In this document: positions 21,587 to 22,510 of the stretch, piece by piece
Layout: every line of letters starts with the position of its first letter
How positions within the stretch are numbered: the stretch's first letter is position 1
DNA from: Escherichia phage ECO103 4-12-1
Direction: 5' to 3' (one strand)
Sequence record: OR844650
Length of the DNA: 64,000 nt
Made by a program: the position numbers and the translations under genes
The notes under the pieces: model-generated
What the model saw: the letters and a program-made list of their open reading frames with translations, nothing else
The model's database searches: none
Told to the model about the DNA's origin: nothing

Positions 21587-22510
21587 TTACTTAAAAGTAT
21601 TTACAATTTCTAAAACACTTTCAAGATACTTAGCATCAAATGTTTCAGTAAATCCTGACGGTAACTCTTCAGTACTTACAACACCACTTTCAATGTATTT
21701 CTTTATGAACTTTTCCAACAGTAATGGTTGATTGCCATCTTCAAAGTAGCGTTCTACAAGTACTTCATGCTCGAACTCAGAATTGCGACTTTGTTCGTTT
21801 ACACGGCGTTTCATATCACCAGTGATTCCATACTTGTACACCGTCTTGTCATTGTTAGTTAGTTTTTGAACATAGAAATATCCAGGTTTTGATGGTTGAT
21901 AACCATACTCACCACATGATGGACATCCTCTTCCTGCCATATGAGATTTGGGTATTTGTTTAAAGACACCATGTTCAGGACAAATAATATCCACATGTTC
22001 ATCACTAGTCTTGTAATCCACCAAGCTATAATCATACTTATGGTTATGGATAGGCGACACAAGTTCAATGAAACGTTCAGTACTTCTTCCACCTTTACCA
22101 GAACATATTCCACAACTAGTTTTTCCTTTTAATAATGTTGCGGCTGATACTTCCCAATCATGCACATCATTCGGATCATTATGACATGTAACGATGACTC
22201 GCCCATTACTGTCACTTTGTTTTTTGTAGATAGTTTTCTCAAATGACAATGTTGGATGGATGGTTTTAACTTTTTCAATAAAAGTTTCGGTCGTGTATGC
22301 TGTGTTTTTTTGACAAATGTTACATCCTTTTGCAGAAGGTCGGACTATTTGCATAGGAGTGATTTTGAAATAATGACAACCTTCTACACAATAAAGTTCA
22401 ACCTGTTTATGAGCATTAATATATACCATTTTATCAAACAAATACACACCAGTACCATACTTTTCATTCACTGCATTAATAAATTTTTCTTCATTTGGAT
22501 TCATTGTCAT
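21587..22510 (-). CDS. homing-endonuclease-like protein: three zinc-ribbon repeats plus C-terminal GIY-YIG/T5orf172-like domain
   Basis: three repeats of F-x-E...H...YDYS...C..HG.F...GCP.C; C-terminal GYFYV...YKYGIT...RR. Confidence 0.5.
   Translation of the reverse strand: MTMNPNEEKFINAVNEKYGTGVYLFDKMVYINAHKQVELYCVEGCHYFKITPMQIVRPSAKGCNICQKNTAYTTETFIEKVKTIHPTLSFEKTIYKKQSDSNGRVIVTCHNDPNDVHDWEVSAATLLKGKTSCGICSGKGGRSTERFIELVSPIHNHKYDYSLVDYKTSDEHVDIICPEHGVFKQIPKSHMAGRGCPSCGEYGYQPSKPGYFYVQKLTNNDKTVYKYGITGDMKRRVNEQSRNSEFEHEVLVERYFEDGNQPLLLEKFIKKYIESGVVSTEELPSGFTETFDAKYLESVLEIVNTFK

Follow-up and report, generated by a model that had tools for sequence, protein, structure and literature searches.

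Two probable free-standing homing endonuclease genes of an Asteriusvirus jumbo coliphage join one family of zinc-finger repeats to GIY-YIG or Vsr-like nuclease domains

Introduction

The seg (GIY-YIG) and mob (HNH) genes of phage T4 spread by intronless homing, in which intergenic genes with their own expression signals encode enzymes that cleave a neighbouring gene in relatives lacking the homing endonuclease gene (HEG), and the flanks are co-converted (PMC2988022). Here we describe two genes, P1 and P2, which appear to follow the same lifestyle and which lie in a 64,000-nucleotide (nt) stretch of DNA, hereafter the window, from Escherichia phage ECO103 4-12-1 (sequence record OR844650). The T4 enzymes differ from P1 and P2 in their DNA-binding modules, which are of the NUMOD, helix-turn-helix (HTH) or minor-groove helix kind, and in having the opposite domain order, since P1 and P2 carry an array of zinc fingers at the N-terminus.

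Two described classes of phage HEG come closer to these genes. Barth, Dunham and Seed (2023, PMC10448857) found CapR, DUF723 or DUF4379 zinc fingers, often in tandem, in 200 of 229 phage T5orf172 HEGs, and reported beads-on-a-string arrays, deletion and duplication of repeats, and swapping of DNA-binding and nuclease modules. These HEGs are enriched beside capsid, terminase and ribonucleotide reductase genes, an essential-gene neighbourhood being typical of them. The second class was described in a study of phage group II introns (Nucleic Acids Research 2025, PMC12350094), in which HEGs consist of 3-5 CapR/DUF4379/DUF723-like domains of ~60 amino acids (aa), followed by an EDxHD/Vsr-like nuclease, and have thousands of relatives. 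A homologous zinc-finger domain is found in CapR, a protein of the Vibrio cholerae satellite PLE that represses a capsid operon and whose four zinc-finger cysteines were shown by electrophoretic mobility shift assay to be needed for DNA binding (PMC8096241). CapR is a repressor without a nuclease domain, whereas P1 and P2 carry full nuclease domains.

A preliminary description of the window proposed that P1 and P2 arose by modular shuffling of one DNA-recognition array onto two nuclease chemistries, and that they may represent an uncharacterised homing endonuclease architecture. Our analysis bears out the shuffling and the HEG nature of the genes; the claim of an undescribed architecture falls, because the repeats match the CapR/DUF723/DUF4379 family already known in homing endonucleases and both designs have been published (PMC10448857, PMC12350094). 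The phage carries T4-like core genes but is strictly an Asteriusvirus jumbo coliphage and not a T4-like phage. We consider it likely, from the sequence comparisons below, that P1 and P2 are free-standing HEGs of these two already-described modular classes.

Results

Both open reading frames (ORFs) were present where they had first been placed, and both lie on the minus strand, which had been left unstated. Their parts are as follows.

21587..22510, minus strand: P1 gene, 307 aa; three CapR/DUF723/DUF4379-type zinc-finger repeats and a C-terminal T5orf172 (GIY-YIG superfamily) nuclease domain
21899..22510, minus strand: P1 zinc-finger array; repeat 1, aa 1-69 (22304..22510); repeat 2, aa 70-141 (22088..22303); repeat 3, aa 142-204 (21899..22087)
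21590..21898, minus strand: P1 nuclease domain, aa 205-307, T5orf172-type GIY-YIG fold, with GYFY (210-213), YKYGIT (225-230), R236, E266 and GFTETF (286-291)
32961..33917, minus strand: P2 gene, 318 aa from ATG 33917; three zinc-finger repeats and a C-terminal Vsr-like (EDxHD/Hef-type) nuclease domain
33297..33917, minus strand: P2 zinc-finger array; repeat 1, aa 1-74 (33696..33917), ligands C39/H42/C59/C62; repeat 2, aa 75-143 (33489..33695), ligands C109/H114/C130/C133; repeat 3, aa 144-207 (33297..33488), ligands C179/H182/C199/C202
32964..33296, minus strand: P2 nuclease domain, aa 208-318, a Vsr-like PD-(D/E)xK variant, with D244, E255, H261, D281 and K284

An alternative GTG start at 33932, 15 nt upstream of ATG 33917, would give P2 323 aa, and this was the start first assigned. 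It is probably too far upstream; ATG 33917 is favoured by a GAGGT Shine-Dalgarno sequence 9 nt upstream, and because the same start is shared with an identical protein (P0001) and with a 60%-identical homolog on contig L005, described below. Residue numbers for P2 accordingly refer to the 318-aa form.

The three tandem repeats that the preliminary description saw at the start of each protein align in register, as units of ~65 aa with the pattern F..x..H(G)..YDYS..Y......I.C..HG.F......H...GCP.C, a C..H..CxxC zinc finger. Because our first repeat hidden Markov model (HMM) held the sequences that it retrieved, and was therefore circular, it was replaced by a leave-one-protein-out test on the 489 six-frame ORFs of the window. 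The HMM built from P2 only detected P1 at E=1.2e-18, the HMM built from P1 only detected P2 at E=6e-26, and with neither did any other ORF score. BLASTP aligned the two proteins at 3e-18 over the repeat region only, leaving the C-termini unaligned. The ligands are strongly conserved, all 12 positions (C, H, C, C per repeat) being invariant in 50 of 50 P2 homologs; among 45 homologs of P1, each repeat has three invariant cysteines, with a fourth ligand that varies in repeats 1 and 2.

Pfam places the repeats of both proteins in the same group. P1 matched DUF4379 with 24.7 bits (cut-off 24.5), and P2 matched DUF723 with 29.6 bits (cut-off 20.9) and DUF4379 with 25.7 bits (cut-off 24.5). Within the P1 family, DUF4379 was found in 38 of the 45 members, DUF723 in 20 and the CapR homology domain (PF21817) in 11; the last was also matched by 17/50 P2 homologs. 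Pfam describes DUF723 and DUF4379 as a "probable treble clef zinc finger". NCBIfam gave no match for either protein. AlphaFold2 models (predicted local distance difference test score, pLDDT, 90.5 for P1 and 94.4 for P2) show each repeat unit as a helix followed by a beta-hairpin pair; the low predicted template modelling scores (pTM 0.48 and 0.55, respectively) are expected for a beads-on-a-string fold. The similarity is far beyond chance, and on sequence and profile comparison the repeats of P1 and P2 are assigned to one family in the CapR/DUF723/DUF4379 zinc-finger group. A chance pattern of cysteines and histidines, or spurious ORFs, was ruled out by the HMM and BLASTP statistics, the thousands of homologs and the confident structure models. 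By analogy with the homolog CapR, the only member with experimental evidence of DNA binding, the repeats would bind DNA, presumably at an extended site.

The GIY-YIG/T5orf172-like C-terminus first ascribed to P1 is upheld by homolog matches, by a domain profile and by conserved residues. Among the P1 homologs, T5orf172 was matched in 17/45 (best 9.5e-9) and MUG113 in 13/45, and the profile of the P1 domain retrieved, with E=2.3e-6, a bona fide T5orf172 ORF at 20868..21209, which matches Pfam at 3.7e-13. K226, G228, E266 and E289 are conserved in all 45 homologs, Y213 in 44 and R236 in 40, and G286 is within the residues kept in 40-45 of the 45; E266 is the putative catalytic glutamate, as equated by motif order. 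P1 also matched phrog_681 of PHROGs, labelled 'endonuclease', at 7.6e-63. Single-sequence phmmer searches of PDB sequences returned only chance-level matches for P1 and for P2, and the sole match of the P1 family profile there, the p73 SAM domain, was judged spurious.

P1 resembles the T5orf172 HEGs of Barth et al. (PMC10448857; ICP1 gp174, Vibrio phage 184E37.3a and Helene) in its N-terminal tandem zinc fingers and C-terminal T5orf172 domain, and also in its variable presence, its capsid-gene neighbour, and the remodelling of repeat number and array between alleles. The 184E37.3a HEG aligns over 97% of the length of P1 with 31% identity. P1 differs in belonging to another lineage, Asteriusvirus, and in its divergent T5orf172 domain, which alone scores under the Pfam cut-off. 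Its repeats differ from CapR proper, whose ligands are CxxC..CxC, in that they fit best as DUF4379/DUF723 with C..H..CxxC ligands.

The Vsr-like C-terminus proposed for P2 is borne out by Foldseek, by an alignment to AbaSI and by a match to F-LimIII. Foldseek compared the P2 model to 1vsr with probability 0.99 and to 1cw0 with probability 0.97, and further matches were Vsr-like mitoribosomal proteins and R2 RLE domains. The D..E.D..H segment of the P2 family profile aligned to the Vsr-like domain of AbaSI (E 0.27), and with the P2 domain profile F-LimIII, a Hef-like homing endonuclease from phage LIMEstone1, was matched at 6.8e-12. D244, E255, H261, D281 and K284 are kept in 46-47 of 50 homologs (D244, E255, H261 and D281 in 47/50), and the spacing of D244/E255/H261/D281 resembles that of D196/N208/H213/D222 in I-Bth0305I and D51/H64/H69/D97 in Vsr. 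In PHROGs, P2 matched phrog_559 at 1e-66 and phrog_9084, 'homing endonuclease', at 2.3e-31.

The layout of P2, three CapR/DUF4379/DUF723-like domains and then a nuclease domain of ~100 aa of the EDxHD/Vsr-like kind, is that of the HEGs in PMC12350094. Those HEGs sit in phage group II or group I introns, whereas P2 is free-standing in an intergenic spacer, as an ORF with its own terminator and insert junctions outside coding sequence, so that an intron location was not found, no RNA-family search having been made there. P2 shares the Vsr-like core on its C-terminal side, with equivalent Asp/His/Asp residues, with Hef-type enzymes of T4-related phages, represented here by F-LimIII, and with I-Bth0305I (PDB 3r3p), the EDxHD prototype, and like Hef it is free-standing beside an essential phage gene. 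The 'x' position of EDxHD is Glu in P2 (E255), Asn in I-Bth0305I and His in Vsr; PDB sequence and profile searches gave no direct alignment of P2 to 3r3p. I-Bth0305I binds DNA through two NUMOD2/HTH motifs, and P2 is expected to do so through its three-unit zinc-finger array, since Pfam, NCBIfam and PHROGs gave no NUMOD or HTH match in its N-terminus. P2 is thus placed by its predicted domains outside the canonical I-Bth0305I type, being without NUMOD2/HTH and not intron-encoded. Nor is the whole architecture of P2 found in the Hef-like F-LimIII, which shares the nuclease domain only and is without CapR-like repeats.

The cross-detected repeats, the unaligned C-termini, and the T5orf172 and Vsr-like domains together bear out the view that one repeat family has been joined to two nuclease chemistries.

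Both genes sit between conserved core genes, as had been noted, with P1 by the major capsid gene and P2 by the endonuclease VII gene. The comparison with related phages that the preliminary description had called for revealed empty sites in PBECO4 and in the Salmonella SD phages, and the junctions of both inserts could be defined; this presence/absence polymorphism with precise junctions gives both loci the look of free-standing HEGs, as originally proposed. Over 19000-24000, the window has 100% identity with Escherichia phage IA-38 and ~97-98% with slurp01, G17, 121Q and PBECO4. At the P1 site (locus 1), the following features were found.

21564..22569: locus 1 insert, 1006 base pairs (bp), with 44 bp in its place in PBECO4 (blastn junctions and junction alignments)
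22539..22567, minus strand: sigma-70-like promoter in the insert, upstream of P1; TTGACA, 17 nt, TG-AATAAT; 11/12, a consensus match only
22689..22959, minus strand: 3'-terminal part of the major capsid gene (22644..23819), with a cluster of variable sites

The insert is bounded on the right by the terminator of the major capsid gene, a hairpin at 22581..22600 that is present at the empty site too, and on the left by ATG 21563 of the downstream gene. The mechanical ORF of that gene, 21213..21572 (minus strand, 119 aa), starts at TTG 21572; comparison with PBECO4 gp517 and the position of the insert junction show ATG 21563 to be the real start, giving 116 aa, so that the gene abuts the P1 insert and receives a new ribosome-binding site from it. 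No terminator of P1's own was found in the insert.

At least three states of locus 1 exist: empty (PBECO4 and the SD phages), occupied by a three-repeat allele, or occupied by a four-repeat allele (121Q and others). The P1 protein is identical in slurp01, G17, Sharanji and IA-38, and other GenBank phage occupants are 54-94% identical to it. The 121Q allele lies at the same junctions and encodes 365 aa with four repeats; its last repeat and nuclease domain are ~95% identical to those of P1, and its upstream repeats, of which there is one extra, are strongly diverged. When 1.25 kb of the window, PBECO4 and 121Q were compared, ~40 of 52 variable sites clustered in the 270 bp of the capsid gene adjoining P1. 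This mosaic variation suggests repeated gene-conversion events at the P1 site.

At the P2 site (locus 2), the flank pattern is sharper.

32900..33976: locus 2 insert, 1077 bp, with 58 bp in its place in PBECO4
32921..32949, minus strand: terminator-like hairpin inside the insert, 12 nt past the P2 stop, with a 13-bp stem and a T-run
33977..34295, plus strand: diverged 5' tract of the endonuclease VII gene, ~28% different from PBECO4, linked to P2, co-conversion-like

The right junction of the insert is exactly at the endonuclease VII ATG (33978). A promoter for P2 is represented by a weak 9/12 match, no better than chance, and promoter-like counts were at chance overall in both loci, with only the 11/12 site upstream of P1 standing out. 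Of the promoter-like elements and terminators with which both genes had been credited, a putative P1 promoter and a putative P2 terminator are thus borne out; P1 has no terminator of its own, and the P2 promoter match is weak.

The P2 insert was absent at locus 2 in all 56 matching GenBank phage records, and tblastn found no GenBank phage copy of P2 that was >60% identical; an exact copy, P0001, was found on two Logan contigs at the same locus. Sliding counts of the endonuclease VII gene against PBECO4 gave 83 mismatches in the 300 bp adjoining the insert and then 0 for at least 500 bp, and only ~50 bp are diverged from PBECO4 on the other side of the insert. Salmonella phage SD-15_S21 has no P2, and its flanks match the window with 99.6-99.8% identity as far as 32858 and again from 34271; the SD phages differ from the window exactly over 32859..34270. 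The whole imported unit at locus 2 is therefore about 32859 to 34270-34295.

The codon differences between the endonuclease VII genes of the window and PBECO4, 43 synonymous and 22 nonsynonymous, all fall in codons 1-106. The gene was also compared with that of L005, a metagenomic contig of 186 kb from a jumbo phage. L005 shares only 67-70% identity with the window in its flanks and holds, at the position of P2 and with the same 60-bp divergent spacer, a three-repeat Vsr-type gene 60% identical to P2. Over aa 1-98 of endonuclease VII, the window is identical to the HEG-bearing L005 at 85 of 98 residues and to PBECO4 at 77 of 98; over aa 99-163, it is identical to PBECO4 at 64 of 65 residues and to L005 at 46 of 65. 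The endonuclease VII of the window is thus a chimera with a sharp boundary at codon ~106, whose HEG-proximal part resembles the HEG-bearing lineage. The nuclease genes around endonuclease VII in L005 are listed here.

L005 2418..3449, minus strand: 343 aa, DUF4379 plus T5orf172 type
L005 4001..4948, plus strand: 315 aa, Vsr-type, 60% identical to P2

The pairing of the two nuclease chemistries therefore recurs in L005, around a single essential gene. Co-conversion in intronless homing predicts just such a flank haplotype, tied to the HEG and common to distant genomes (PMC2988022), and the haplotype points to a probable P2 target within ~300 bp in the 5' third of this gene.

Discussion

If P1 and P2 are HEGs, the three independently folded, treble-clef-like zinc fingers of each (CapR/DUF723/DUF4379 group) would bind an extended DNA site and tether the C-terminal nuclease, GIY-YIG/T5orf172 in P1 and Vsr-like EDxHD/Hef-type in P2, which would cut nearby. 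In a mixed infection with a related phage that lacks the HEG, each enzyme would cut the allele of that phage within or close to the adjoining essential gene. The cut by P1 would fall in the intergenic spacer or at the 3' end of the gene for the major capsid protein, and the cut by P2 in the 5' third of the gene for endonuclease VII. Repair by recombination with the genome that carries the HEG would then copy the HEG together with its flank, which is presumably cleavage-resistant. The cleavage activity, the location of the targets and the current mobility of both enzymes are predictions drawn from sequence comparison; the co-conversion expected of the flanks would be represented by the sharp endonuclease VII chimera at locus 2 and, more weakly, by the mosaic cluster only at locus 1.

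Several observations weigh against a homing role or against the domain assignments on which it is built. The window P1 alone scored 16.9 bits against Pfam T5orf172, under the 20-bit cut-off, and P2 scored below the cut-offs for DUF559 and DUF2726. The Foldseek E-values of P2 against Vsr were weak, about 0.057-0.07, which can be attributed to the multi-domain query model, and the first Glu of EDxHD could not be placed with confidence in P2, E214 being present in only 11 of 50 aligned homologs. The flank variation at locus 1 is mosaic rather than a clean tract, and the diverged endonuclease VII tract at locus 2 could in principle stem from ordinary homologous recombination that happens to end at the HEG. 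In the literature searched, no cleavage, homing or DNA-binding data were found for members combining a zinc-finger array with a Vsr-like nuclease.

It is improbable, though worth considering, that P1 and P2 have been domesticated or weaponised, and serve the phage as sequence-specific DNA binders or nucleases rather than as selfish homing elements. Possible roles would be regulation of capsid or endonuclease VII transcription (like CapR), exclusion of co-infecting relatives, or attack on satellites (like the T5orf172 nuclease Odn). CapR, with the same zinc-finger domain, acts on a capsid operon promoter (PMC8096241), T5orf172 proteins have been co-opted in phage-satellite conflict (Barth et al., PMC10448857), and P1 comes immediately after the major capsid gene and shows 100% conservation among four isolates. 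A stand-alone T5orf172 gene close to P1, described below, is moreover fixed in all the relatives examined. Unlike CapR, however, P1 and P2 keep complete nuclease domains with conserved catalytic residues; both are dispensable, being absent from close relatives; and the linked flank haplotype at locus 2 is a prediction of homing. Exclusion of the markers of a co-infecting phage follows from homing and is no alternative to it (PMC2988022).

Less probable still is that P1 and P2 are decayed or passive passengers, now inactive, whose presence and absence reflect deletions and recombination unrelated to any activity of their own. The degenerate fourth zinc ligands in repeats 1 and 2 of P1 and the weak promoter match of P2 would fit such a history, and HEGs often decay once fixed. 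Yet the ORFs are intact, with confident AlphaFold2 models (pLDDT 94.4 for P2 and 90.5 for P1), the window copies retain their catalytic and ligand residues, and the insert junctions are precise. Furthermore, a P2-type gene has been kept at the same site, free of frameshifts and with 60% protein identity, in lineages whose nucleotide sequences have diverged by ~30%, indicating long-term selection for function. Homing endonucleases thus remain our preferred identification for both proteins.

As further HEGs of architectures already catalogued in phages, P1 and P2 are ordinary when taken alone, but they make an unusually clean case. Relatives are numerous: P2 has more than 7,600 in databases, many with longer arrays and some labelled very-short-patch-repair endonuclease, and GenBank phage records with tblastn matches number 959 for P2 and 688 for P1. 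What is new here is the occurrence of precise empty and occupied alleles in cultured coliphages, the presence of three- and four-finger alleles at one site, and the sharply bounded, co-conversion-like endonuclease VII tract, which predicts the region (~300 bp) where P2 would cut. Since the empty, three-repeat and four-repeat alleles occur in cultured Escherichia coli phages that are otherwise ~97-99% identical, with junctions defined to the base, a first biochemical study of a homing endonuclease with a zinc-finger array and a Vsr-like nuclease should be straightforward. P1 and P2 would also allow direct comparison of GIY-YIG and Vsr-like enzymes that use the same type of array.

A more speculative idea, to which we give little credence, is that each zinc finger of ~65 aa recognises its own short part of the site, and that the GIY-YIG or Vsr-like cutter would be retargeted predictably if fingers were added, removed or exchanged. 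If such a modular code were true, the three- and four-repeat alleles and the empty sites would be a natural start for deciphering it, and the proteins would offer a compact new scaffold for programmable nucleases.

The analysis also corrects database labels. Homologs of P1 are entered in GenBank or PHROGs as 'hypothetical protein', 'endonuclease', 'DUF4379 domain-containing protein' and, in phage CRJP21, 'DNA polymerase II', and P2-type genes (phrog_559, Flavobacterium phages and GAP32) are labelled 'HNH endonuclease' although the nuclease is Vsr-like; the corrections concern 'hypothetical', 'HNH endonuclease' and 'DNA polymerase II'.

Two genes downstream of P1 lies the stand-alone T5orf172/GIY-YIG gene mentioned above, which has no DNA-binding module.

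20865..21191, minus strand: stand-alone T5orf172 gene, 108 aa, Pfam 3.7e-13

It is kept in PBECO4 (gp516) and 121Q (gp606), and is fixed rather than polymorphic in the relatives examined; it could be what is left of a decayed HEG, or a nuclease that has been domesticated.

Near locus 2, the SD phages (SD-15_S21, L004 2441..2750) have an endonuclease VII gene that is annotated as a pair of short ORFs and lacks ~180 bp relative to the window and PBECO4. The missing part ends at window position 34271, where identity resumes, and would be explained either by a deletion where the recombined tract ends or by a fault in the assembly. The empty-site allele of PBECO4 (L003 2401..2458) contains a perfect TATAAATA, T4-late-promoter-like, ~35 nt upstream of endonuclease VII. 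The window's imported allele (33918..33977) is without TATAAATA, and a further copy lies 46 nt upstream of the capsid start (23865..23872, minus strand). We make no claim that TATAAATA, as a T4 late promoter, is a meaningful signal lost on insertion, because the window shows no enrichment of the motif (7 found vs 10 expected). Elsewhere, the six-frame list includes a very long ORF of 3336 aa from stop to stop, at 49156..59163 on the plus strand.

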